Of a stretch of 13,144 nt of DNA, positions 1 through 12,675 are shown piece after piece. The stretch is taken from assembly GCA_043819075.1 (NCBI GenBank), contig JBDRFE010000011.1, forward strand, positions 1-13,144, given 5' to 3'. The translations under genes and the position numbers were made by a program. The DNA is from an archaeon (GTDB taxonomy: Archaea > Iainarchaeota > Iainarchaeia > Iainarchaeales > 1-14-0-10-31-34). Every line of letters starts with the position of its first letter. Position 1 is the first letter of the stretch. The notes under the pieces are model-generated. The model was given only the letters and a program-made list of their open reading frames with translations. It did not search any database and was not told where the DNA came from.

Positions 1-651
1 CCAGAAATGCTTTTCTTTTGAAAAAGCATGGTTCATTAAAGTGTGCGCCATTTCACTTAATTCTTCATTGGCTGTTACAACCATTCCGCCTTCTCCGGTA
101 GTAATTATTTTGTTTGCATAAAAGCTGAAGCAGCCGCAGTCTCCAATAGAGCCGACTTTTTTTCCTTTGTATAAGGCACCATGGGCTTCAGCCCCGTCTT
201 CTATAACTTTCAGGCCGTGTTTTTCAGCTATTTCCATTAAAGGGTCCATGTCAACTGGATGGCCGTAAGTGTGAACAGGCATTATTGCCTTTGTTTTTTT
301 GGTTATTTTTTCCTCTATTTTGGTTACATCCATATTCCATGTATCCATTTCAGAGTCAACTAAAACAGGTTTTGCTCCTGCATAAATAACTGAATTAGCT
401 GTGGCAACCATTGTGAAAGAAGGCATTATCACTTCATCGCCTTTTTTTATTCCAAGAGAAGCAACAGCCAAATGCAGTGCTGTTGTGCCGCTTGTAGCGC
501 TAATGCCGTATTTTGTGTCACAGAATCCAGCAAATTTTTCCTCAAACTCTTTCACAAAAGGGCCCATAGAAGAAATCCAGTTTGAATCAAAGCATTTTTT
601 TACGTACTCAAATTCTTTTTTCCCGATATTTGGTTCACAGACATGAATCAT
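1..651 (-). CDS. DegT/DnrJ/EryC1/StrS family PLP-dependent sugar aminotransferase, GDP-perosamine synthase-like (3' end runs off the window)
   Basis: Manual translation of the minus strand from ATG at 651 is open to base 1: MIHVCEPNIGKKEFEYVKKCFDSNWISSMGPFVKEFEEKFA...SGTTALHLAVASLGIKKGDEVIMPSFTMVATANSV...IMPVHTYGHPVDMD...IEDGAEAHG...FSFYANKIITTGEGGMVVT. This contains the SGTTALH, EDxAxAHG and SF...NK.ITTGEGG (PLP lysine) motifs. A GAGG SD-like site lies upstream. Not in the ORF track because it has no stop inside the window. Confidence 0.95.
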   Translation of the reverse strand, partial: MIHVCEPNIGKKEFEYVKKCFDSNWISSMGPFVKEFEEKFAGFCDTKYGISATSGTTALHLAVASLGIKKGDEVIMPSFTMVATANSVIYAGAKPVLVDSEMDTWNMDVTKIEEKITKKTKAIMPVHTYGHPVDMDPLMEIAEKHGLKVIEDGAEAHGALYKGKKVGSIGDCGCFSFYANKIITTGEGGMVVTANEELSEMAHTLMNHAFSKEKHFW

Positions 652-705
652 TGTAATCCCTCATACTAAAAATAAATATTAGTTCAGTATATTTATGTTA
701 GAAAA

Positions 706-724
706 TCATTTATATGCTTTTTCG
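706..724 (-). promoter_or_regulatory. Putative archaeal BRE + TATA box for the aminotransferase
   Basis: The minus strand reads CGAAAAAGCATATAAATG, a purine-rich BRE-like run followed by ATATAAAT, about 55-60 nt upstream of the ATG at 651. Confidence 0.5.
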
Positions 725-828
725 TACAAGAATCAAACAATCTAAAATTCTATACAGATGCCTTAATATATGATAAATTTGAATTATCAAATAAAAACAT
801 TTCTTAACATTTTATCTTATAGAATTCT

Positions 829-1452
829 ATGCAACTCAAAGAATATTACAAAGAATATGGAAGAAAAATGCCTGAAGAAAGGGAAAATGGAATCCCTTTA
901 TCTAAAGAAAGAATTCAAAAAATCCTGCCATTCTTTGAAGAACCTATGTTAGATGTTGGCTGTTCAAAAGGGTATGATGTAAGGTATTTTTATAACAAGG
1001 GTTTCAAAAAAACTTTTGGTTGTGACATTTCTGAGGAAGTTATTAGCGTTGCCAATTCGTTTTTGCCTGGCCATTTTTTTGTTCACAACTTTGAAGAAAA
1101 AAAAATTAAAAAAAAATTTAAAACAATTTATTCTTTTGACGTAATTGAACATTTGTTTTTCACAAACGAATTTTTGGAAAACATTTTTTACTCAATACTG
1201 CCAAAAGGCAAATTGATTATCACCTGCCCGAATGTTTTGTCAATAAGAAACAGAATTAATTTTTTGTTTGGCAAAGGAGAATACTTTATTCCAAAACACA
1301 ACTGTCCGCATATAAGATTTTTCAATACAAAAAGTTTAGAGCAAAAATTAAAACAAACAGGTTTCAGAAAAGTCCTTTTCTTTAATGCCTCAAAAATCCC
1401 TTTAATGCCAGATTCTTTAGTTGGCTCAATAACAGCTGTGGCATTAAAATAA
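829..1452 (+). CDS. Class I SAM-dependent methyltransferase (glycan-cluster type)
   Basis: 207 aa. Motif I LDVGCSKG, then GCDIS, FDVIEHL, LIITCPN and HIRFF, which are typical of Methyltransf_11/23-type proteins in polysaccharide loci. Confidence 0.9.
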   Translation: MQLKEYYKEYGRKMPEERENGIPLSKERIQKILPFFEEPMLDVGCSKGYDVRYFYNKGFKKTFGCDISEEVISVANSFLPGHFFVHNFEEKKIKKKFKTIYSFDVIEHLFFTNEFLENIFYSILPKGKLIITCPNVLSIRNRINFLFGKGEYFIPKHNCPHIRFFNTKSLEQKLKQTGFRKVLFFNASKIPLMPDSLVGSITAVALK

Positions 1453-1476
1453 CTTAAAAAAATTTTCTTAATCCTG

Positions 1477-2940
1477 TCAATTACTCCTTTCAATAATTTT
1501 TTTAAAGAAAATAATGTCTTTTTCATCAAAGCCCTTAATTAAAATCAAAACAACAAAATACAAAATAGAAGAAATGATAACCAAAAGAAATATGTTTAAA
1601 AAGAAAAAGAAATAAATAAAAATGAAAATTACAAAACTTGCAATTACACATTTTATTACATCTTTTAACAAAGAAGAAAAATTTAAAAAATGTTTAGAAA
1701 CAAAATATCCTCCTAAAATAAAAAGAGCCAACTCAGATAAAACGCTTGCAAAAGCCGCCCCTATAAAATCATAAATCGGGATTAAAATTAAACTCAAAAA
1801 AATGTTTATAATCAAGGAAATGCCAAAAAGAAAAGAAGCTCTTTTTTCAAAAACAGTAGACTGCAACACATTCAAAAAGACCATATTTAAAAAATTAAAC
1901 ACAGAAAGCCAGATTAAAATTGTCAGTGCCGTAGAAGCCGGGAAAAAATTATTTAACCCAGTAGTAGGGTAAACTAATCCTATAATTCTTTCTGAAAGCA
2001 GTGTTGTGGAAAAAGCTATGGGAAGAACAATAATTAACAAATATTTGGACGATTTTTCAACAACAGTGTTAAGAGACTTGTTAGAAACCGCATAAAAAGA
2101 TGCCATTACTGGAAAAACCACTGTCATAAAAGTTGCAGGCACAAAACCAATAACAGAAACCAATCTCATTGCTGCAGCATAGTAACCAACACTGACATTC
2201 CCCTTAAAAAATAAAAGCGTAATTAAAGCAATGTTCCCATAGATTGCTGTTAATAGGTACATTAAAGAAAACGGCAAACTCAACATAACAAGCTTTTTAT
2301 ATTTTTTAAAATTGAAATTAATTTTAAGTTTGGTAAATTTTCTTGTTACTACAAAGAAACTTAAAATAAAATTAAAAAAGCTTGAAAACACTGCCACAAA
2401 AAAAACTTCTTTTAGCCCATAACCAAAAAAAAGAACTCCGATTGTAAGAAATACAAGAATAATTTTGTAAAAAACATTCACAAAAAAATCATATTGCATT
2501 TCTTGAAAAGCAAAAAAAATCATTCTAAACAGGCCAGCCATTGAATCGAACAACAAAGAACATCCCGCGATCAAAATAAAAAAAAACATAGAAGAGAAAT
2601 ATTTTGTTCCATAAAAGAAATTAAGCAAAGTGCCTAAAACAAAAACAACAATAAGCACAACTAAGGATAAAAATATTTTAATTACAAAAGCATCTCCTAG
2701 AAGTTCACCTGCTTTGCTTTTATCTTTTGCGATTTCCCTGGAAATTAAGACTCCGATCCCTAAATCTCCAAAAACTGTGAAAATTAAAACAAAAGAAAAA
2801 GCAAAAGAATAAACACCAAAATCTCCAACCCCTAATTTTTGTGCAATGTAAATAACCATGCCAAGAGAAAGAATCCTTTGAACAATATTCCCTGCACTAA
2901 GAAAAAAAATATTTTTTCCTATTCTTCTTACAGTACTCAT
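1477..2940 (-). CDS. Wzx/RfbX-type oligosaccharide flippase (MOP superfamily polysaccharide biosynthesis protein)
   Basis: About 488 codons, very hydrophobic with many predicted TM segments. Family-typical segments: RRIGKN..., LGVGDFGVYSFA, DLGIGVLISREIAK, VGYYAAAMRL, LILIPIYDFIGAAFAS. Start placed at ATG 2940 (MSTVRRIGKN); ATG 2946 is an alternative. Confidence 0.93.
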   Translation of the reverse strand: MSTVRRIGKNIFFLSAGNIVQRILSLGMVIYIAQKLGVGDFGVYSFAFSFVLIFTVFGDLGIGVLISREIAKDKSKAGELLGDAFVIKIFLSLVVLIVVFVLGTLLNFFYGTKYFSSMFFFILIAGCSLLFDSMAGLFRMIFFAFQEMQYDFFVNVFYKIILVFLTIGVLFFGYGLKEVFFVAVFSSFFNFILSFFVVTRKFTKLKINFNFKKYKKLVMLSLPFSLMYLLTAIYGNIALITLLFFKGNVSVGYYAAAMRLVSVIGFVPATFMTVVFPVMASFYAVSNKSLNTVVEKSSKYLLIIVLPIAFSTTLLSERIIGLVYPTTGLNNFFPASTALTILIWLSVFNFLNMVFLNVLQSTVFEKRASFLFGISLIINIFLSLILIPIYDFIGAAFASVLSELALFILGGYFVSKHFLNFSSLLKDVIKCVIASFVIFIFIYFFFFLNIFLLVIISSILYFVVLILIKGFDEKDIIFFKKIIERSN

Positions 2941-3051
2941 AACCATCAATAAACAAGACAATAATAAAATCAACTGAATTTAATTAAAATACATTTGAAA
3001 ATCAGTTATTAAAAAGGATTTTGGTACAAAAATAAATACAAAAAAATCACA

Positions 3052-3097
3052 CTATTTAAATTGTTATGAGAACAATATAATAAATTGTTCCAAGTGA
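3052..3097 (+). promoter_or_regulatory. Putative TATA box (TATTTAAAT, 3053-3061), inverted-repeat operator (3070-3090) and GTGA SD upstream of the C-methyltransferase
   Basis: TTTAAA at 3055-3060; GAACAAT-N7-ATTGTTC palindrome at 3070-3090; GTGA at 3094-3097, before ATG 3102. Confidence 0.45.
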
Positions 3098-3101
3098 TTA
3101 A

Positions 3102-4385
3102 ATGAAGAAAGCGGTTGAAATAAAAAAATGCAGGGTTTGCGGTAAAAAAAAATTAATTAAAATACTTTCTTTGGGAAACCAATTTGTGTCAAATTTTGTT
3201 GCAACATCAAAAGAAAAACACGTAAAAATCCCACTGAAACTTGTTTTATGTGATAGCAAGGCAGGTGGTTGCGGATTATTACAATTAAGGCATACAACAC
3301 CATCTAATTTGATGTACCATAATTATTGGTATTTATCTGGGATGAACAAAACAATGATTCTCGCTTTAGCTGATATAACAAAAAAAGCAGAACAAATAAT
3401 TTCATTAAAAAAAAATGATTTGGTTCTTGATATAGGCTGCAATGACGGAACCTTGTTGCGAAACTATCAAACAAAAGGAATCAAACTTATAGGGTTTGAC
3501 CCTGCAAAAAACCTGCTTGCGTACTCTCAAAAAGGAACAACAAAAATAATAAACAATTTCTTTAATGCAAAAGAGTTTCAAAAAGAGTTCAAAGAAGAAA
3601 AAGCGAAGATAATTACAAGCATTGCAATGTTTTACGATTTGGATAAGCCAAACGATTTTGTTAAGGATGTAAAAAAATGTCTGGATGATAATGGTTTATG
3701 GGTAATTCAAATGAGTTACCTTCCTTTAATGCTTGAACAAAATGCATTTGATAACATATGCCATGAACACATAGAATTTTATTCTTTAACTTCACTTGAA
3801 AATTTGCTTAAAAGACATGAAATGGAAGTAATTGGAGTGGAATTAAACAATGTAAATGGGGGAAGTTTTAGAACATATATAAAACACAAAAGAGCCAAAA
3901 TAAAAGCTCTTGAAAAGGAAAAAGAAAAATTATTTGAATTAAGGGACCGCGAAAAAAAAATAGGGCTTGAAACAAAAAAACCTTATGAAGAGTTTGCAGA
4001 AAGGGTAAACAAAATTAAAAAAGAGCTAGTTGAATTCATAAAACAAGAAAATGCAAAAGGAAAAAAAATCTACGTTTATGGGGCATCGACCAAAGGAAAC
4101 ACTCTGCTGCAATTTTTTAACTTAAACAACAAATTGATCAAAGCAGCAGCAGAAAGAAATTTAGACAAAATAGGAAAAAAAACTACAGGGACACTAATTC
4201 CAATAATATCTGAGGAACAAGCAAGAAAAGAAAATCCAGATTACTTTTTAATTTTGCCATGGCATTTCCTGAAGGAATTCACGGAAAGAGAAAAAGAGTA
4301 TCTTGAAAACGGAGGAAAATTTATTGTTCCCTTGCCCGAGCCAAAAATAATAGGAGGATTTGGTTTTGAAGAAGTTCTTGATTAA
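3102..4385 (+). CDS. NDP-hexose C-methyltransferase (TylCIII/EryBIII/NovU/TcaB9-like, Zn-binding N-terminus)
   Basis: 427 aa. N-terminal CRVCG ... LC(x)GCGLLQL zinc site, SAM motif VLDIGCNDG, FDNICHEH, GGSFR, YGASTKGNTLL, ILPWHF and GGKFIVPLP, all characteristic of the three-domain sugar C-methyltransferase family. Confidence 0.92.
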   Translation: MKKAVEIKKCRVCGKKKLIKILSLGNQFVSNFVATSKEKHVKIPLKLVLCDSKAGGCGLLQLRHTTPSNLMYHNYWYLSGMNKTMILALADITKKAEQIISLKKNDLVLDIGCNDGTLLRNYQTKGIKLIGFDPAKNLLAYSQKGTTKIINNFFNAKEFQKEFKEEKAKIITSIAMFYDLDKPNDFVKDVKKCLDDNGLWVIQMSYLPLMLEQNAFDNICHEHIEFYSLTSLENLLKRHEMEVIGVELNNVNGGSFRTYIKHKRAKIKALEKEKEKLFELRDREKKIGLETKKPYEEFAERVNKIKKELVEFIKQENAKGKKIYVYGASTKGNTLLQFFNLNNKLIKAAAERNLDKIGKKTTGTLIPIISEEQARKENPDYFLILPWHFLKEFTEREKEYLENGGKFIVPLPEPKIIGGFGFEEVLD

Positions 4386-5025
4386 ATCCCTGTATTATTA
4401 CCATAAAATTTTTAAGCCTGGCTTTTATTTTAATGGAAAAAAATATACATATTTTGCTGAAAGAAAAGACAAAATGACCTGGAGAAATGAAAGAGCAGTT
4501 GAATTGCCTTTAATGTGGAGCGAAGTTCAAAAGTTTAAAGGAAAAAGAATTCTTGAAATCGGAAATGTTTTATCACATTATTTTTCTTTTGAGCATGATA
4601 TTGTTGATAAATTTGAAAAAGGCAAAGGTGTAATAAACCAAGACGTGGTTGATTTTAAACCCAAAAAAAAATATGATCTGATTGTAAGCATTTCCACTTT
4701 AGAGCATGTTGGCTGCGGCAGATTTAAAGACTGGGACGAATTCCCAAAAGAACCAAAAAAAGTGTTGAGAGCAGTAGAAAACCTAAAAAACAACTGTTTG
4801 GCTGAAGGAGGGAAAATGATTGTTTCAATGCCTGTCAACTATAATGTTGACATGGACAAAATGATAGAGAAAAACGAGATTCCATTTACAGAGAAATTCT
4901 GGCTGAAAAGAATTTCCTGGCTGAATGACTGGAAAGAAGCAGACTGGAATTCTGTTAAGGACGCAGAATTTGATTCACCGTATTCTTTTGCAAACGCACT
5001 GCTGATAGGAATCATCAGAAAATAA
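4366..5025 (+). CDS. SAM-methyltransferase-fold protein, DUF268-like
   Basis: NERAVELP, RILEIGN, YDLIVSISTLEHVGCGRF, LAEGGKMIVSMP. Start placed at TTG 4366 because AGGAGG (4352-4357) lies 8 nt upstream; the track's TTG 4360 is only 2 nt from that SD. Confidence 0.75.
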   Translation: MKKFLIKSLYYYHKIFKPGFYFNGKKYTYFAERKDKMTWRNERAVELPLMWSEVQKFKGKRILEIGNVLSHYFSFEHDIVDKFEKGKGVINQDVVDFKPKKKYDLIVSISTLEHVGCGRFKDWDEFPKEPKKVLRAVENLKNNCLAEGGKMIVSMPVNYNVDMDKMIEKNEIPFTEKFWLKRISWLNDWKEADWNSVKDAEFDSPYSFANALLIGIIRK

Positions 5026-5048
5026 ATAAAGAAAGGAAAAGAAACTAG

Positions 5049-6143
5049 ATGAAACCAAAAAAAGTTCTTCTTATATCTGATTTTGCTTTTCCTGTTAAAG
5101 CAGGGACTGAAAGACTGGTTTTTGGTGCAGCTGAATGGCTGAACAAAAACGGAATAAAAACTGACATTCTTACGCCAAATTGGGATAACTTAAAAGAACA
5201 TGAAATACAGGAAAAAGTAAATATTTACAGGTTCAACACACATGAAATAACGCGCACAAATCCGTTGAAAAGAATACAAGATTACATTAATGCAGGAAAA
5301 AAACTGGAAAAATATGACATTTACCACGGATTTTATACTATGCCACCGTTAATTGCGGCTATCCTGTTAGCAAAAAAAATGAAAGCAAAATCAGTAATTA
5401 CTTTTTTTGGAAGAGAGCAACTGGAAAAAAATTTTTCAAACCCAATAAAAAAATTTTTTCTTCTGAATGAACTGAAGAAAGCAGACAAGATAACAACATA
5501 TACCTGGAATTTGCAGGAATATTTTGAAGAAAAATATTTCAAGAACAAAAATATTACTACCTTGCAGGGCTGGTCTGAACACAAGTTTAGAAAAATTGAA
5601 TGCATTAAGCCTGAAAAAAAAATTGTTTTGTTTGTGGGAAGAATTGATGAAAGCAAAGGGGTTTTTGTTTTAGTTGATGCATTTGAAAAAATTAAGGACA
5701 GAGTTAATGCAAAACTTGTTTTTGTTGGCCCTCCATATGAAAAAGAAAAGCTTGAAAAAAGAATAAAAGAAAAAAAAATGGAAAGCATAGTTGAAATAAG
5801 AGGTTTTGTTTCAGATGAGGAACTCAACGAGCTTTACAGTTCAAGCGAAGTGGTGGCAGTTCCTGCATTGCACGGAGACGCATTTGGTTTAAGCTTAATG
5901 GAAGCAATGGCGTTAGGGAAACCTGTTATATGCACTGACTCAGCCGGATCTCCCGACAAAAAAAAGGAAGAAGAATTAATTGTTGAAAGAGGGAACTCAA
6001 ATGAGTTGGCAGAAATGCTTGAAAAACTTTTGACTGACAGGGATTTTTATGAAAAAGCAGTAAATGTCTCAAAAAAAAGAGCTAAATTATTTGAAAAAGA
6101 AAAAGTAATGCAAAAGTACGCAAATATCTACAATTCACTTTAA
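5049..6143 (+). CDS. Glycosyltransferase family 4 (GT-B fold)
   Basis: 364 aa. N-terminal FPVKAGTER, VLFVGRIDESKG, RGFVSDEEL, DAFGLSLMEAMALGKPVI. An AAGGA SD-like site lies upstream. Confidence 0.93.
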   Translation: MKPKKVLLISDFAFPVKAGTERLVFGAAEWLNKNGIKTDILTPNWDNLKEHEIQEKVNIYRFNTHEITRTNPLKRIQDYINAGKKLEKYDIYHGFYTMPPLIAAILLAKKMKAKSVITFFGREQLEKNFSNPIKKFFLLNELKKADKITTYTWNLQEYFEEKYFKNKNITTLQGWSEHKFRKIECIKPEKKIVLFVGRIDESKGVFVLVDAFEKIKDRVNAKLVFVGPPYEKEKLEKRIKEKKMESIVEIRGFVSDEELNELYSSSEVVAVPALHGDAFGLSLMEAMALGKPVICTDSAGSPDKKKEEELIVERGNSNELAEMLEKLLTDRDFYEKAVNVSKKRAKLFEKEKVMQKYANIYNSL

Positions 6144-6854
6144 TTTTATGTTTTTTATCATAGATGCTGCCCTGAATAATGACTCAAATGTTCCTGCATC
6201 ACTCCAATAGCCATTTAAAAAATTTGCCTTAAGCTTTTTTTTCCTGATAAAAGCATTATTGACATCAGTTATTTCCAGTTCGCCTCTTCCGGAAGGCTTT
6301 AATGACCTGATTATCTTGAATACCTCTGGAGGATACAAATAGATTCCGGTTACAGCAAAATTTGTTTTCGGTGTTTTAGGTTTTTCTTCAATTGAAACAA
6401 CTTCTTTTCCTTTCAGTTCTGCAACACCAAACCTTTTTGCATCAACAACTTCTTTCAAAAAAATAAAAGCCGAATCAGATGACGACTCAAATTCTTTTAC
6501 CGAAGAAGCAATTGAATCCTCTAAAATGTTGTCGCCTAAAACAACGGCAATTTTTTCGTTGTCAGCAAAATTTTCTGCCAAAGACAATGCCTGTGCAATT
6601 CCTCCTGCTTCTTCCTGGATTTCATAAGTAAACCTTGCATTAAATTCCTTTCCAGAGCCCAACAGCTTTAGGAAGTCACCTGCATGCTCTTTGCCTGAAA
6701 TAATCATAATGTCTTTTATTCCTGCTTCAAGAAGAGTATTCAAAGGAAAATAAATCATCGGCTTGTCGTAAACAGGAAGAAGGTGCTTATTGGTTACTTT
6801 AGTCAAAGGAAAAAGCCTGCTTCCTGTTCCACCTGCAAGAATTACGCCTTTCAT
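6135..6854 (-). CDS. rmlA: Glucose-1-phosphate thymidylyltransferase, short form
   Basis: GVILAGGTGSRLFPLTKVTNKHLLPVYDKPMI, LGDN, EEKP, AVTGIY, SGRGELEITDVN, WSDAGT. Overlaps the rmlD stop by 4 nt (ATGA). Confidence 0.92.
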   Translation of the reverse strand: MKGVILAGGTGSRLFPLTKVTNKHLLPVYDKPMIYFPLNTLLEAGIKDIMIISGKEHAGDFLKLLGSGKEFNARFTYEIQEEAGGIAQALSLAENFADNEKIAVVLGDNILEDSIASSVKEFESSSDSAFIFLKEVVDAKRFGVAELKGKEVVSIEEKPKTPKTNFAVTGIYLYPPEVFKIIRSLKPSGRGELEITDVNNAFIRKKKLKANFLNGYWSDAGTFESLFRAASMIKNIKLK

Positions 6855-7705
6855 AAGTTCATCTGCTTTTTTACTTTAATTAAACCTTCTTCCACCGAAC
6901 TCATTTTAATTCCTTGCAGCTGAATTTTCGTAATGTCAAGAGAAGAATCAACTGGCCTTTTTGCTTTCCAGCCAGGAACTCCAACAGCTTGTTTCACCAA
7001 AGAAGAATCCAATTCAAAAACCCTGCAGATCTTCATCAGCAAATCATATCTTGAACAGGACTCGCTTCCTGCAACATGAAACAAGCCAGAAAAATTTTTT
7101 TCAAGCATGAAATAAACTGCTTCTGCGGCATCGTCAATTAAAGTGGGAGAATTTGTTATGTTTGCTACAAGAACTTCCTTGTGGTTCTTCAGCTGTTCTA
7201 TTGCATAACACACAAAAGTGTTTTTGTCTTCAATAGAGTTGAAACCATATAACAATGAAACCCTTGCAATCAAAAAAGAATCTGTTCCTTTTACCAGTTC
7301 TTCTCCTTGAACTTTTGTTTTACCGTAAAAGTTTATTGGATTGGTTTTGTCGTTTTCAGTGTAATTCCCTTTTATTCCGTCAAAAACATAGTCAGTTGAA
7401 AAAAAAACAAGCTTTGAATTGAATGCACGGCAGGCATCAACAACATTTCTTGTGCCTTCAAAATTCACTTCAGTTGCCTGAATTTTGTGTGCCTCGCAAA
7501 AGTCAACGCTTGTTATTCCTGCAGTAAGCAAAACTATATCAGGGTTAAGGTCTTTAAACAAATAAATCAATGACTGCTCGTCTGTTATGTCAAGGGAATA
7601 ATCAACTTTTCCTGCAATGTCAGCTGTAACTATTTTTATTCCTTTTTTCCTGAAAACAGAAACAAGTTTTTCCCCTAAAAAGCCTTTTCCTATAAGGAAA
7701 ATCAT
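6851..7705 (-). CDS. rmlD: dTDP-4-dehydrorhamnose reductase family SDR
   Basis: IGKGFLG Rossmann motif, TSVDFCE, FSTDYVFDG, PINFYGKTK (YxxxK), SPT, RP..SSL. Start at ATG 7705 gives an ATGA overlap with the rmlB stop. Confidence 0.88.
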   Translation of the reverse strand: MIFLIGKGFLGEKLVSVFRKKGIKIVTADIAGKVDYSLDITDEQSLIYLFKDLNPDIVLLTAGITSVDFCEAHKIQATEVNFEGTRNVVDACRAFNSKLVFFSTDYVFDGIKGNYTENDKTNPINFYGKTKVQGEELVKGTDSFLIARVSLLYGFNSIEDKNTFVCYAIEQLKNHKEVLVANITNSPTLIDDAAEAVYFMLEKNFSGLFHVAGSESCSRYDLLMKICRVFELDSSLVKQAVGVPGWKAKRPVDSSLDITKIQLQGIKMSSVEEGLIKVKKQMNL

Positions 7706-8658
7706 TTTTTCTTCAATGGCTCCCACCACCAGGAATTCTGTTTATACCATGAAATTGTTTCCTTTAATGCAGTTTCAAAAGAATGCTCTGGCTTAAAGCC
7801 TAAATCATTTATTTTAGTGCAGTCCAAAGCATACCTTAAGTCATGGCCTTTCCTGTCTTCAACAAATTCAATCATGCTTTTATTCTTTCCTAATTCATTT
7901 AAAATAAATTCTGTTACCTCTAAATTTGTTTTCTCATTTCCTGCCCCGGCATTAAATGTTTCTCCTTTTTTTCCTTTCTCCATTACTTTAATTATTGCAT
8001 CACAGTTGTCTTTGACAAAAATCCAGTCCCTTGAATTTTTTCCGTCACCATAAACAGGCACTTTCTTGTTTTCAAGCAGATTGGTTACAAACAATGGAAT
8101 CAGTTTTTCAGGAAACTGGTTTGGACCGAAATTATTTGACGAACGAGTAATCTTTACATCTAAGCCATAAGTCTTGAAATAAGAAAAAGCAAGCCTGTCA
8201 GCTCCGGCTTTTGAAGCAGAATAAGGCGAAGACGGCATTAAAGGGCTGTCCTCGGAAAAAAAACCGTTGTTAATGCTGCCATACACTTCATCAGTTGAGA
8301 TTTGAATTATGCCAATGTCTTTTTTTCTTGCTTCCTCTAACAAGACAAATGTTCCAAAAACATCTGTTTTAATGAAGTCTTCAGGAGAAGTGATTGAACG
8401 GTCAACATGGGATTCAGCTGCAAAATTAATTATTAAATCAGAATCTTTTGCGGCTTTTGCAACAATTTTTTTGTCACAAATGTCGCCTTTAATGAAAGAA
8501 TAATTTTTGTTTGATTCAACTTCTTTCAGGTTTTCAAGCCTGCCGGCATAAGTCAGCTTGTCTAAATTTGTTATTTTTGCTTCAGGGTAAACAGAAAAAA
8601 AATGCTTGATAAAATTGCTGCCAATAAAGCCTGCCCCGCCTGTTACAAGAACATTCAT
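7702..8658 (-). CDS. rmlB: dTDP-glucose 4,6-dehydratase
   Basis: LVTGGAGFIGSN, DKLTYAG, FAAESHVDRSI, ISTDEVYG, PSSPYSASKA, NNFGPNQFPEKLIP, DRKGHDLRY. Start at ATG 8658 with a GTGG SD-like site. Confidence 0.96.
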   Translation of the reverse strand: MNVLVTGGAGFIGSNFIKHFFSVYPEAKITNLDKLTYAGRLENLKEVESNKNYSFIKGDICDKKIVAKAAKDSDLIINFAAESHVDRSITSPEDFIKTDVFGTFVLLEEARKKDIGIIQISTDEVYGSINNGFFSEDSPLMPSSPYSASKAGADRLAFSYFKTYGLDVKITRSSNNFGPNQFPEKLIPLFVTNLLENKKVPVYGDGKNSRDWIFVKDNCDAIIKVMEKGKKGETFNAGAGNEKTNLEVTEFILNELGKNKSMIEFVEDRKGHDLRYALDCTKINDLGFKPEHSFETALKETISWYKQNSWWWEPLKKK

Positions 8659-8690
8659 TTCAACCACAAAAATATAATCAAGCAAAACAA

Positions 8691-9626
8691 TTAAAGATTA
8701 TTAACTCCCTTAAAATAATCAATTGTAATCTTTAATCCTTCTTCTAACGGAACTTTTGGCTTCCAGCCGAGCTTTTCTACTGCAAGCGAAATATCAGGTT
8801 TTCTCTGCTTTGGGTCGTCTTTTAACGCAGGAAGGAATTCAATTTCAAGGTCTTTATTGCTTAACTTTTTTATTTTTTCAGCAAACTCAAGTATAGTGAA
8901 TTCTTCAGGGTTTCCTAAATTTACAGGCCCGGAAAAATCCGATTCCATCATTTTAATTAATCCTTCAACCATGTCAGAAACAAAACAAAAGCTTCTTGTC
9001 TGCTTTCCGTTTCCGTAAACTGTCAGAGGCTTGTTGTTTAATGCCTGAACAATAAAATTCGGAACAACCCTTCCGTCATCTGGCTTCATTTTAGGGCCAT
9101 AGGTGTTGAATATCCTAACAATTTTTCCCTTAAAAGAAAACTTTTTTTCATATGCCTTGATTAATGCCTCAGAAAAACGCTTTGATTCATCATAACAGGA
9201 ACGTTCGCCAACAGGATTAACATTACCCCAATAAGATTCTTTTTGCGGGTGCTCCAAAGGGTCGCCGTAAATTTCTGAAGTAGAAGTAAACAAAAATTTT
9301 GCCTTGTTTTTTAATGCCAGATCCAAAAGATTTTTTGTCCCAAGAGAACCAACCAGCATTGTTTCAACTGGCTTGGAAAAATAATCAACCGGAGAAGCAA
9401 GAGAAGCTAAATGATAAACTTCTTCAAATTTTTCTTCAAAAGAAAAACTATTAATGTCCTGCTGAATAAAATGAAATCTTTTATTTTCAAGCAAAAAAGC
9501 AATGTTTTTTTTGTTTCCTGAAATTAAATTGTCTGCACAAAAAACTTCTTTCTTTTTTTCAAGCAATGCCTCGCATAAATTGCTTCCGATGAATCCTGCC
9601 CCGCCTGCAACCAGAACTTTTTCCAT
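8691..9626 (-). CDS. uxs: UDP-glucuronate decarboxylase (UDP-xylose synthase)
   Basis: GGAGFIGS, HLASLASPVDY, TSTSEIYGDP, YWGNVNPVGERSCYDESKR, RIFNTYGP, DGRVVPNFIVQAL, QTRSFCFVSD, DDPKQRKPDI. Confidence 0.92.
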   Translation of the reverse strand: MEKVLVAGGAGFIGSNLCEALLEKKKEVFCADNLISGNKKNIAFLLENKRFHFIQQDINSFSFEEKFEEVYHLASLASPVDYFSKPVETMLVGSLGTKNLLDLALKNKAKFLFTSTSEIYGDPLEHPQKESYWGNVNPVGERSCYDESKRFSEALIKAYEKKFSFKGKIVRIFNTYGPKMKPDDGRVVPNFIVQALNNKPLTVYGNGKQTRSFCFVSDMVEGLIKMMESDFSGPVNLGNPEEFTILEFAEKIKKLSNKDLEIEFLPALKDDPKQRKPDISLAVEKLGWKPKVPLEEGLKITIDYFKGVNNL

Positions 9627-9635
9627 AAAAAAACC

Positions 9636-10511
9636 TTAAAGCAGGTTCCTCATGATTTCCCTTGCTTCTTTTCTCATGTCATCTCTTTGCATTGAATACT
9701 CAAGGCATGCTTTCAAGTAGCTTATTTTGTCTCCGACAGTAAGCCATTTGCCGTCTTTTATTTCATAAGCCATCATTTTGTCAATTTCATTTAAAACCCT
9801 TAATCCGTCAGTTAACTGCAGTTCGTTTCCCTTGCCAAAAGGCACTTCCTCTAAAATCCCAAAAATTTCAGGCTTCAACAAATATCTTCCGACAATAGCT
9901 AAATTTGACGGGGCTTTGCTTGCAACAGGCTTTTCAACCATGTCCTGCACAACAATTTCCCCGTCTTTTTTTTTGTATTTTATTACCCCAAATTTTGATA
10001 CCTCTGTTTTCGGAACTTGTGCAACACACAAAACAGAACTGTTGAATTTGTCATGAATGTCAATCAATTTTTTGAGTGCAGGCTCTTTTGAAAGAATTAA
10101 GTCATCGCCAAGCATTACAGCAAAAGGCTCATTGCCAATATGCTTTTTTGCGCATAAAACAGCATGACCTAAACCCAATGGCTCTTTTTGCCTGATGTAA
10201 TGAATGTCAGCCAAAGAATCAATTCTCTTCATTTTGCCAAGCAAATCTTTTTTCTGTTTTTTTTCAAGCAAGTCATATAATTCACTTGAATGGTCAAAAT
10301 GGTTTTCAATTGCAGTCTTGTCTTTTCCTGTGACAATAATAATGTCCTGAATTCCAGAGGCAACAGCTTCTTCAACTAAATACTGGATTGCAGGCTTGTC
10401 AACAACAGGAAACATTTCTTTTGGCACAGCCTTTGAAGCAGGCAAAAACCTTGTGCCTAACCCTGCAGCAGGAATAACCGCTTTCCTGACAAAATTTCTT
10501 TCTTTACCCAT
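9636..10511 (-). CDS. galU: UTP--glucose-1-phosphate uridylyltransferase
   Basis: KAVIPAAGLGTRFLPASKAVPKEM, IENHFD, RQKEPLGLGHAV, LGDD, VEKP, GRY, ELQLTD. ATG 10511 is preceded by a GGTGA SD (10518-10522) that contains the ugd stop. Confidence 0.95.
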   Translation of the reverse strand: MGKERNFVRKAVIPAAGLGTRFLPASKAVPKEMFPVVDKPAIQYLVEEAVASGIQDIIIVTGKDKTAIENHFDHSSELYDLLEKKQKKDLLGKMKRIDSLADIHYIRQKEPLGLGHAVLCAKKHIGNEPFAVMLGDDLILSKEPALKKLIDIHDKFNSSVLCVAQVPKTEVSKFGVIKYKKKDGEIVVQDMVEKPVASKAPSNLAIVGRYLLKPEIFGILEEVPFGKGNELQLTDGLRVLNEIDKMMAYEIKDGKWLTVGDKISYLKACLEYSMQRDDMRKEAREIMRNLL

Positions 10512-10517
10512 TTTCAA

Positions 10518-11783
10518 TCACCACGACAGCCCTACATAATTAACAATTTTCTTTTCTTTAAAAATGTTTCTGGCATCAAAAACAGGCTTTCCCCTGAAAT
10601 CCAGGCCAGAAAACTCAGGCCAGCCGGTCAAAACAAGGATTAAATCGCTTGAATCAATTGTTTTCTGGGCTGAATCGGCATAAGATATTCCTGAAATTTC
10701 TTTTTTCATGTTTTTTTCTGCTTTAGGGTCATGCGCCAAAACAACAGCTTTTTCTTTTAAAAGCAATTTAATTACCGGAATAGAACGGCTTTCCCTTACA
10801 TCATCTGTTCCGGGCTTGAAAGCCAATCCAAGCACACCAACTTTTTTTCCTTTAAGGCTGGTTTTAGACTTGATTAAGTCAAGAAAAATTTTTGGCTGTT
10901 CTTCGTTGACTTTCATCACAGAGTCAAGCAAAAAAGTTTTTACCCCAAGCTCTTTTCCTTTTGCAATTAAAGCAGAAACATCTTTTGGAAAACAGCTTCC
11001 TCCGAAGCCCAGGCCAGCATTCAAAAAATGAGGTGAAATTCTTTTATCCAAGCCAACTCCTTTTGCAACAGTATAAGTGTTAATTCCCAGCTTTTTACAG
11101 ATATTGCCTACTTCATTAATAAAAGAAATTTTTGCTGCAAGCAAAGAATTGGAAGCGTATTTAATCATTTCAGCTTCAGACAGCCCGCAATAAAACTTTG
11201 GAGAAGAAAAATCTGCATAAACTTGGTTCAAAACATTTTCTGTTTTTTTGTCGGTTAAACCCAAAATAATCCTGTCAGGGTTCAGAAAATCTTCAAGCGC
11301 AAAGCCTTCCCTTAATGTTTCAGGGTTCATGCACAAGCCGAATTCACCTGATTTTTTTCCTGAAAATTTTTCAAGCAAAGGCAAAACAATTTTTTCTGTA
11401 GTAGAAGGCACCACAGTGCTTTTCACAACAACAACATGAAAAGAATTTTTTTCTTTTAACGCCAAAGCAAGCTGTTTTGAAACAGACTCAACTGCACTCA
11501 AATCACATTTGCCTTTTTCATCACAAGGAGTTCCCACACAAATAAAAGATACATCGGATTCAAGAACTGATTTTTTTAAGTCAGCTGAAGCAGTCAAAGA
11601 AACAGGGACAACCTTGTTTAATGCTTCCTGCAATCCTTCTTCAAAAATAGGGGGAATTTTATTGTTAATCATTTCAACTTTTTCAGTATTGTTGTCAACA
11701 CAGACAACTTTATGGCCTTTAAGCGCAAAGCCGACTCCGGTAATAAGGCCGACATAGCCTGTTCCGATAACAGAAATATTCAT
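10518..11783 (-). CDS. ugd: UDP-glucose 6-dehydrogenase (UDP-glucose/GDP-mannose dehydrogenase family)
   Basis: IGTGYVG, ICVGTP, KSTV, NPETLREG, AEMIKYASN, GFGGSCFPKD (catalytic Cys), GLAFKPGTDDVRES, DARN. ATG 11783 with GGATGTGA upstream. Confidence 0.94.
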   Translation of the reverse strand: MNISVIGTGYVGLITGVGFALKGHKVVCVDNNTEKVEMINNKIPPIFEEGLQEALNKVVPVSLTASADLKKSVLESDVSFICVGTPCDEKGKCDLSAVESVSKQLALALKEKNSFHVVVVKSTVVPSTTEKIVLPLLEKFSGKKSGEFGLCMNPETLREGFALEDFLNPDRIILGLTDKKTENVLNQVYADFSSPKFYCGLSEAEMIKYASNSLLAAKISFINEVGNICKKLGINTYTVAKGVGLDKRISPHFLNAGLGFGGSCFPKDVSALIAKGKELGVKTFLLDSVMKVNEEQPKIFLDLIKSKTSLKGKKVGVLGLAFKPGTDDVRESRSIPVIKLLLKEKAVVLAHDPKAEKNMKKEISGISYADSAQKTIDSSDLILVLTGWPEFSGLDFRGKPVFDARNIFKEKKIVNYVGLSW

Positions 11784-11794
11784 TAAATCACATC

Positions 11795-11807
11795 CATAAG
11801 CAGTATG
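11795..11807. promoter_or_regulatory. Putative operator 1 (CATA-N5-TATG), next to the ugd start
   Basis: CATAagcAGTATG, 11 nt upstream of the ugd ATG; matches operator 2 at 10 of 13 positions. Confidence 0.55.
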
Positions 11808-11820
11808 TAATAAAAAAAAC

Positions 11821-11840
11821 AAGAAAAGGCTTTAAAATAA
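11821..11840. promoter_or_regulatory. Putative (bidirectional) BRE/TATA element of the divergent ugd / regulator promoter
   Basis: AAGAAAAGGC TTTAAAATAA: a purine-rich BRE-like run, then the palindromic TTTAAA at 11831-11836, lying between the two operators. Confidence 0.55.
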
Positions 11841-11846
11841 GAATGA

Positions 11847-11863
11847 GTCATATGAAGTATGAC
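11847..11863. promoter_or_regulatory. Putative operator 2 (GTCATA-N5-TATGAC)
   Basis: Perfect 6-5-6 inverted repeat ending 5 nt before the ATG of the RHH-fusion gene. Confidence 0.65.
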
Positions 11864-11868
11864 AGTGT

Positions 11869-12675
11869 ATGAGAAAAAGGGTTACAATCACAATAAAAGA
11901 AGACATTCTCAGGCAGGTTGACAGGATAGTTGACGGATTAAGCATCAGGAGCAGGAGCCAGGCAATGGAATACCTTTTGTCAAAAACCCTTTCTGATTAC
12001 AAAATAAAAAATGCACTGGTTTTAGCAGGGGGAAAAGAGCTGATAAAAGGAGTGGAAGAAAAAAGCAGGTTTTTGCTTGAAATAAACGGGAAACCCCTCC
12101 TTGAAAAAGTGATAAATCATTTAGAGGAATTCAATGCAGGCAAAATAACTGTGAATGTTGACTCAAACAAAGAAAAAATAATTAATGCATTAAACAGGAA
12201 AAAAATTTCAGCTGACTTTCTTGAACTCGAAAAATCTTCGGGAACAATTGAACCGCTTTCTAGGATGAAAAACCAGTTCACTGACACTTTTATTGTGGTT
12301 AACGGCGACACATTATCAAGCATTAACTTAAATGAAATGCTTTCCTTTCACAGAACAAACAAATCTATTGCAACAATTGCATTGACGACAGTAAACAATC
12401 CAAGGGATTACGGGGTGGCAATGCTGCAGGGGGAAAAAATAACTGATTTTACAGAAAAACCGAAAAAAGAGGCAGGAAGCTATCTGATTAGCGCAGGATA
12501 TTATATTTTTGAACCAGAAATATTCAGATACATTTCCAGGAACATGAAAAGCATTGAAAAAGACTTGTTTCCAAGGCTGGTGGAAAAAGGGCTTTTAATC
12601 GGCTATCCTTTTCAGGGAATGTACTTTAACATCAACACAAAAAAAGACTTTGAGAAAGCAAAAAGAATTTTGTGA
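11869..12675 (+). CDS. Ribbon-helix-helix (NikR/CopG-like) domain fused to a degenerate sugar-phosphate nucleotidyltransferase domain; putative transcriptional regulator
   Basis: Residues 1-42 MRKRVTITIKEDILRQVDRIVDGLSIRSRSQAMEYLL have the RHH pattern (alternating beta-strand, LxxxD helix, SRS turn). The remainder is NTP-transferase-like (LVLAGG, INGKP, VNGD, DYGV, FTEKP, AGYYIF, SIEKDLFP) but lacks the GxGTR and PK motifs. Confidence 0.85.
   Translation: MRKRVTITIKEDILRQVDRIVDGLSIRSRSQAMEYLLSKTLSDYKIKNALVLAGGKELIKGVEEKSRFLLEINGKPLLEKVINHLEEFNAGKITVNVDSNKEKIINALNRKKISADFLELEKSSGTIEPLSRMKNQFTDTFIVVNGDTLSSINLNEMLSFHRTNKSIATIALTTVNNPRDYGVAMLQGEKITDFTEKPKKEAGSYLISAGYYIFEPEIFRYISRNMKSIEKDLFPRLVEKGLLIGYPFQGMYFNINTKKDFEKAKRIL

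Follow-up and report, generated by a model that had tools for sequence, protein, structure and literature searches.

A conserved three-box operator beside a predicted RHH-nucleotidyltransferase regulator of Iainarchaeota and its possible place in a carbon regulon

A three-box operator, conserved in orthologous loci of Iainarchaeota, lies between the divergent genes ugd and P1 in the window, by which we mean the whole 13,144-nucleotide stretch of DNA that was analysed. Its sequence and position suggest, with what we judge to be about an even chance of being right, that one site bound by the regulator P1 represses the P1 gene and probably activates the divergent ugd-galU-uxs-rmlBDA operon, and that the same 15-mer serves a carbon regulon in one genus. 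The nearest named relatives of the locus are Candidatus Iainarchaeum MAGs (79% protein identity; DPANN, Iainarchaeota). The intergenic stretch, 11784-11868, separates ugd (minus strand, start at 11783) from P1 (11869-12675), and the genes on its two sides are:

6135..8658, minus strand: rmlB, rmlD and rmlA of the dTDP-rhamnose pathway (rmlB above cut-off, best matches of rmlD and rmlA below cut-off)
8691..9626, minus strand: probable uxs, UDP-xylose synthase (SDR matches, PRK11908 among them, all below cut-off)
9636..10511, minus strand: galU (TIGR01099 above cut-off)
10518..11783, minus strand: ugd, UDP-glucose dehydrogenase family, first gene of the divergent operon (TIGR03026 above cut-off)
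11869..12675, plus strand: regulator P1, 268 aa, a predicted RHH head (aa 1-45) fused to a nucleotidyltransferase fold that has no catalytic loop (from profiles, alignment and residue counts)

The gene at 8691..9626 we take to be uxs from its sequence motifs. Two relatives (L001:1335-1793, L002:1344-1808) carry, between uxs and rmlB, a 150-aa gene that is absent from this position in the window (8658-8691); we presume it to be rmlC-like, and a family search with it gave no match at E 1e-25. Window 829-6143 holds a surface-glycan cluster of methyltransferases, a flippase-like polysaccharide protein, a C-methyltransferase and a group 1 glycosyltransferase, the likely users of the NDP-sugars. Duplicate regions were seen in the window's genome (G000), namely contig C43 against window 9665-12490, C50 1-738 against window 1-738, and nadA on both C41 and C70; the identities are 78% and 96%, with 78% for the C43 copy of the P1-ugd region. 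Contigs of a sister species, C43 among them, are probably included in the bin. Contig X1, from a near-identical strain of another study, spans the region with no listed change in 11784-11872, which is uninformative because its overall identity is 99%.

The elements of the intergenic stretch are:

11794..11808, no strand: degenerate distal copy CCATA-N5-TATGT, over the predicted ugd start (0.8 bits)
11823..11830, plus strand: purine-rich BRE region of the P1 promoter (forward against reverse BRE scores)
11831..11838, plus strand: TATA box of P1, with the palindromic TTTAAA core at 11831-11836 (spacing to the operator conserved)
11836-11829, minus strand: likely ugd TATA, the TTTAAA core read in reverse
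11837..11844, minus strand: weak BRE predicted for the ugd promoter, rich in pyrimidines and next to the operator (BRE scores)
11848..11862, no strand: operator palindrome TCATA-N5-TATGA, boxes 1 and 2, conserved in orthologous loci (17.6 bits)
11867..11872, plus strand: third box, GTATGA, 10 bp after box 2 (4 nt past the palindrome), overlapping the P1 ATG

The proximal palindrome is perfect, GTCATA-N5-TATGAC, at 11847-11863, with the inner core CATATGAAGTATG at 11849-11861. An initial annotation had paired it with a second core, CATAAGCAGTATG at 11795-11807, 54 bp away, on the other side of TTTAAA (11831-11836), and had placed a further GTATGA at 11867-11872; all of these positions were exact. 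Among the 29 non-redundant orthologous loci of other genomes, all from Iainarchaeota, 28 have the palindrome within 150 nt of P1 at no more than two mismatches. At the 29th (G057) it lies farther upstream of P1: a methyltransferase gene (L022:850-1500) separates operator from P1, and the TATA-operator cassette still stands beside ugd. Removed before counting were duplicates (L018, L019, L032) and two distant homologues (L004, L005) that have no site at one mismatch or fewer; L022 was left out of the distal-copy, third-box and promoter-geometry counts, and L029 out of the third-box and base-preference counts. Seven of the ten outer positions are invariant, and G precedes TATGA in 26/28 loci. 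Scored with the operator matrix, the proximal site is the fifth-best in the genome.

Conservation upstream of homologues, which the initial annotation had proposed as a check, was found for the 5+5 proximal site in 29/29 loci; its 4+4 core is not enriched genome-wide. TCATA-N5-TATGA occurs 8 times in the 1.24-Mb genome, against 0-3 times for the other spacers from 0 to 21, and all eight occurrences directly precede genes (two are on duplicate contigs). CATA-N5-TATG, tried as the motif, was rejected, with 18 genomic matches against 17, 13 and 17 at spacers 6-8.

The third box is at most one mismatch from GTATGA in 22 of 28 scored loci (the window counted), and those that keep it include six in which the ATG inside the box is either out of frame or followed by a stop. 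The box centres are 9 and 10 bp apart, a spacing that would allow up to three RHH dimers on one helix face. In one family (f20; L003, L021, L023, L024, L026) the third box opens a conserved upstream ORF of ~13 codons that reaches or overlaps the P1 start; these short frames carry further half-site-like letters, and the P1 start of L023 is seemingly ATA. Distant RHH-nucleotidyltransferases of families f10 and f8 (L180, L181, L183, L179, L182; 27% identity) have a K-x-S-x-T strand, and their loci show a TATA-like box followed by TCCTAC/TCATAC repeats, one of them with a perfect palindrome.

Genome-wide, TATA-to-ATG distances peak at 29-30 nt, which puts the predicted starts at ~11860-61 forward and 11806-07 reverse. 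Both palindrome copies touch these positions, the proximal one forward and the distal one reverse, in agreement with the initial placement of each near the start site for its direction. Of 30 loci examined, 27 have a TTTAAA-type box at a distance of 11-12 nt to the operator (11 nt in the window), as found by a search confined to 14-21 nt upstream of the operator (two loci had no TATA there and one no ugd start). The reverse TATA is 30-110 nt from the ugd start codon, at least 30 nt in 27/27 loci. The forward BRE score exceeded the reverse one in 27/27 loci (purine fraction 0.77 vs 0.38), as scored by a model that is weak (116 training promoters, low information). Four nt before the ugd ATG, 11788..11795 (minus strand) is what we take to be a Shine-Dalgarno-like element, implying a leadered ugd mRNA and arguing against a separate leaderless ugd promoter. 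A literature search on bidirectional archaeal TATA boxes found nothing relevant.

Seen from P1, the operator covers the predicted start, the position of a putative repressor; seen from ugd, it abuts the predicted weak BRE upstream of TATA, the position of a putative activator. In Pyrococcus, binding of TrmBL1 downstream of TATA leads to repression and binding upstream to activation, and the two effects may be combined at a single promoter region (excerpt of PMC4706686); TFB-RF1 binds just upstream of weak BREs and recruits TFB (excerpt of PMC5937170). From the position rule of the one and the weak-BRE binding of the other we infer autorepression and probable ugd activation; with the operator upstream of the ugd-facing TATA, at a weak BRE, activation of ugd-galU-uxs-rmlBDA appears likelier than repression. 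The autorepression proposed in the initial annotation is thereby retained as the probable role of a conserved site that has a fixed distance to TATA and covers the predicted start. Its proposal that the ugd operon is repressed through the distal copy is disfavoured, the conserved operator lying upstream of the ugd TATA, a position linked to activation in archaea (PMC4706686).

Profile searches define the domain structure of P1. Its head is below cut-off for Pfam RHH_1 (E 0.003) and at cut-off in a second profile search (20.7 bits); a profile of the head family matches NikR and CopG, and its best PDB match is E. coli NikR (E 4e-5), which bears out the NikR-like head noted initially. The body matches NTP_transferase (E 4e-22), with mannose-1-phosphate guanylyltransferases among the best PDB matches. 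By these profiles, P1 is predicted to join an RHH head to a nucleotidyltransferase fold. R4 (35/36) and T6 (34/36) of the head are near-invariant in the alignment. Active sugar-1-phosphate nucleotidyltransferases are marked by a glycine-rich loop with a catalytic arginine, GxGTRL, and GD and EKP are their sugar-pocket residues. The loop GxG[TS]R[LM] was found in 0 of 120 P1 homologues listed and a looser form in 1 of 36 aligned; the window's RmlA has the loop, and GalU has it in the form GxGTRF. The sugar-pocket residues are kept, namely D147 (35/36), E or Q196 (36/36) and K197-P198 (36/36), and P1 has Asn at 254 and 256. Loss of the loop and retention of the pocket fit a ligand-binding pseudo-enzyme, like GMPPA.

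The head profile found 623 cluster representatives at E <=0.001; near-full-length relatives numbered 331, and a quick tree gave one P1 clade (support 97). P1 had no TrmB domain match; the TrmB matches of the genome are on other contigs. A literature search whose scope excluded most subscription journals found no description of an RHH-nucleotidyltransferase family; the excerpt of PMC6393860 concerns toxin-antitoxin genes.

P1 has a paralogue, P2 (contig C42 of the window's genome), which is ~40% identical to it, has the catalytic loop intact, usually lies one gene beyond P1 and precedes a gmd-like gene. The same quick tree places P2 together with stand-alone intact enzymes, but with weak support (77). 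The palindrome stands before P2 as well, exact in 5/6 genus genomes, with one mismatch in G074 and G001, and exact in G083.

The 15-mer extends beyond the two regulators. Exact sites in the six genus genomes, which are kin and not independent, number 8, 7, 7, 3, 5 and 4, a total of 34, against 0, 0, 0, 1, 1 and 1 for the control pattern read in reverse, which sums to 3; genomes outside the genus mostly hold 0-3 exact sites, with no evident excess over control. All but one of the 34 precede nine gene types: P1, P2, gap, ppdK, gdh, fbp, tkt, nadA and ald. The 34th (L053, G033:C3:84373) lies 27 nt before a gene we take, by recall, to be uppP-like; none was seen before the orthologue in the window's genome. 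At one mismatch or fewer, sites precede gap in 5/6, ppdK in 4/6, gdh in 5/6, nadA in 4/6 copies, fbp in 3/5, tkt in 3/5 and ald in 1/1. This amounts to 25/35 upstream regions in the genus against 1/67 outside it (searched without tkt and ald, which were covered within the genus only), and other spacers gave 0-1 of 35. Since these targets were picked from their own matches, a fairer held-out test takes genes from the window's genome alone (gap, gdh, fbp, nadA): the site was present upstream of 12 of 18 orthologues from the other five genus genomes, against 1 of 47 outside the genus. The window's genome has no ppdK site. Rows left out were ppdK G144 and P1 G129; gap G144, ppdK G135 and gdh G025 (no gene N-terminus); gap G060 (too short), a tkt paralogue of 26% identity and the truncated tkt of G000.

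The position of the site relative to TATA is conserved for each target gene and falls into two classes. Counted from the TATA start, the site follows after 31-36 nt at gap, 33-37 at gdh, 26-29 at ppdK and 23 at ald; it precedes TATA by 11 nt at nadA, 6-12 at tkt and 15-25 at fbp. The upstream gap of 11-12 nt seen at ugd recurs at 4/4 nadA and 2/3 tkt sites; TTTAAA is also found upstream of the site in three of four nadA promoters, so that the nadA geometry is ambiguous. From these positions, we predict repression of gap, ppdK, gdh and ald, and activation of fbp, tkt and nadA.

Several further sites were observed. The only carbon-gene site outside the genus (L096, the gap promoter of G032) has one mismatch, is P1-type and lies upstream of a TATA-like box. 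Three gap leaders (L069, L072, L073), 100-150 nt long, share an inverted-repeat element as an insertion that separates the site from the start of gap. In G101 the gene that follows a perfect palindrome is not nadA but an unrelated one of secreted type, and two sites occur in genomes with no P1 found. At C2:87724-88014 of the window's genome, a small RHH gene stands beside a PIN-like gene; TCATAT/GTAATA-type boxes of its own follow a TATA box and may reflect a related recognition code.

The base before TATGA differs among the sites: G in 38/58 half-sites of P1, A or T in 14/14 of P2, T in 36/42 of the carbon genes, which also have A-tract centres, and G in 8/8 of nadA. On matrices built from 6-29 related sites, 17 of 21 carbon-gene sites score higher with P2's than with the all-P1 matrix, and 4/4 nadA sites higher with P1's. 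These preferences make it likelier that P2 reads most carbon-gene sites and P1 reads nadA; against this assignment, G001 and G083 have P2 and lack regulon sites at the genes tested.

Other readings of the site have to be weighed against this one. The initial annotation saw a symmetric pair of operators, so that in this species the distal copy would repress ugd at its start site. The distance from the reverse TATA start to the copy, ~28 nt, does resemble that at the ppdK sites; among 20000 dinucleotide shuffles of its 47-nt stretch, just 23 produced the exact 4+4 core, which counts against pure chance; its score is the highest of the loci tested; and strain X1 keeps it, uninformative as that is at such identity. 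Nevertheless, both of its outer bases are off consensus, including the terminal A that is present in 28/28 operators, and at 0.8 bits it is equalled or bettered at 429 of 1.23 million genomic positions (~1.6% per 45 nt). CATA-N5-TATG was found between ugd and the TATA box in 0/27 loci of other genomes and is absent from the sister-species contig C43. The first C of the copy also overlaps the presumed Shine-Dalgarno-like element of ugd. These comparisons indicate that a symmetric twin design is no feature of the system, that twin operators are quite improbable even here, and that the distal copy is probably due to chance; a weak species-specific second site, which could coexist with the one-operator model, is unlikely. 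That the conserved letters are core-promoter and start-codon elements (initiator, ATG) and nothing else is barely credible: box 2 overlaps the predicted start and box 3 holds the ATG in many loci, but conservation is as strong in box 1, box 3 is retained also in loci whose gene starts at a codon other than its ATG, and the motif occurs at only 8 genomic places, at varied positions relative to TATA.

With operator and protein kept, P1 could instead repress in both directions, hindering TFB on the ugd side or bending the shared TATA, or could do no more than regulate itself. The operator begins 3 nt beyond the 8-nt reverse BRE region, making a steric clash possible, RHH regulators are mostly repressors, and autoregulation alone suffices to explain why the site is conserved. 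We nonetheless hold these variants to be unlikely on balance, given the weak reverse BRE in every locus scored, the equal gap upstream of TATA at nadA and tkt, and an operator that remains with ugd where P1 has been displaced (G057). A separate matter is whether an unrelated regulator of Lrp or TrmB type that shares the palindrome reads the carbon-gene sites, or indeed every site. The T before TATGA and the A-tract centres of the carbon sites set them apart from the P1 sites, which prefer G, the genome holds TrmB-like and other RHH genes, and the regulon is narrower than the distribution of P2; yet the 10-base core and its spacing are identical throughout, P2's own sites likewise have A or T before TATGA, P1 and P2 are the sole regulators among the recognisable genes at the 22 top-scoring genomic sites, and no exact site lies upstream of three other RHH and two TrmB genes. 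An unrelated reader is therefore improbable.

In the reading we prefer, a single three-box site read by P1, up to three RHH dimers would sit on the boxes along one DNA face. On the P1 side they would cover the start site and block RNA polymerase, and on the ugd side they would abut the weak BRE and help to recruit TFB. When NDP-sugars are low, ligand-free P1 would occupy the three boxes, limiting its own synthesis and raising transcription of the ugd operon; once products had built up, an NDP-sugar or a sugar 1-phosphate might occupy the dead enzyme domain, and the DNA would then be released. P2, for its part, would hold back the lower pathway as well as amino-acid deamination; by favouring FBPase, aldolase and transketolase it would direct triose phosphate into hexose-phosphate precursors. 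The full picture is tentative, and we think it somewhat less likely to be right than wrong: the dead sensor P1 and the active-enzyme-type P2 would form a master switch that senses nucleotide sugars and controls carbon flux in a DPANN genus; acting from individual sites next to TATA boxes, it would repress gap, ppdK, gdh and ald (lower glycolysis, amino-acid deamination) and activate fbp, tkt, nadA and the ugd operon (hexose phosphates, pentoses, NAD, surface-glycan precursors). If true, it would be TrmB-like logic built from unrelated parts, with an archaeal RHH activator acting through a bidirectional TATA box. To our knowledge, gene regulation in DPANN archaea is almost undescribed. The analysis offers a regulator pair, a precise operator and predicted targets with a predicted sign of control for each; it suggests how a local autoregulator of nucleotide-sugar genes could expand, inside a single genus, to control a central-carbon regulon, and it draws attention to proteins annotated as enzymes in databases.

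Among known systems, the P1 system would work like TrmBL1 and AmrZ with a NikR-like head, and is a member of none of these. P1 shares with NikR (E. coli 1q5v, P. horikoshii 2bj1) the RHH head with an RVTIT strand, a GTATGA half-site and a C-terminal ligand-binding domain, in P1 a predicted one. It differs in having no nickel domain (TIGR02793 23 bits against a cut-off of 175; NikR models match only aa 3-43) and in its site, TCATA-N5-TATGA plus a direct repeat. The E. coli NikR operator is GTATGA-N16-TCATAC (excerpt of PMC7055735), so that the half-site type is alike and its orientation and spacing are not, as initially proposed; GTATGA-N16-TCATAC has 0 sites in the genome. In TrmBL1/TGM of Thermococcales, a palindrome before or after TATA activates or represses glycolytic and gluconeogenic genes, and one site is able to act in both directions (PMC4706686). 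TrmBL1 is of the TrmB family, not RHH, has the motif TATCAC-N5-GTGATA and carries an unrelated sensor domain; what our regulon shares with those of the TrmB family, site positions per target in two classes, supports likeness of working, not membership. The product of the Pseudomonas gene algD is a nucleotide-sugar dehydrogenase that belongs to the ugd family. AmrZ of Pseudomonas binds as an RHH dimer of dimers to half-sites 5 bp apart (A/T linker), represses its own gene and activates algD (excerpt of PMC3325190). The P1 model is like it in RHH binding to half-sites with a 5-bp spacer, repression of its own gene and activation of a dehydrogenase gene; AmrZ is bacterial, with GGC half-sites, separate activator and repressor sites and no fused nucleotidyltransferase fold. 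Human GMPPA, a catalytically inactive paralogue that still binds NDP-sugar, stands beside active GMPPB (excerpt of PMC11228364), an inactive and active pair comparable to P1 and P2, although GMPPA acts on an enzyme, not on DNA, and has no RHH domain.
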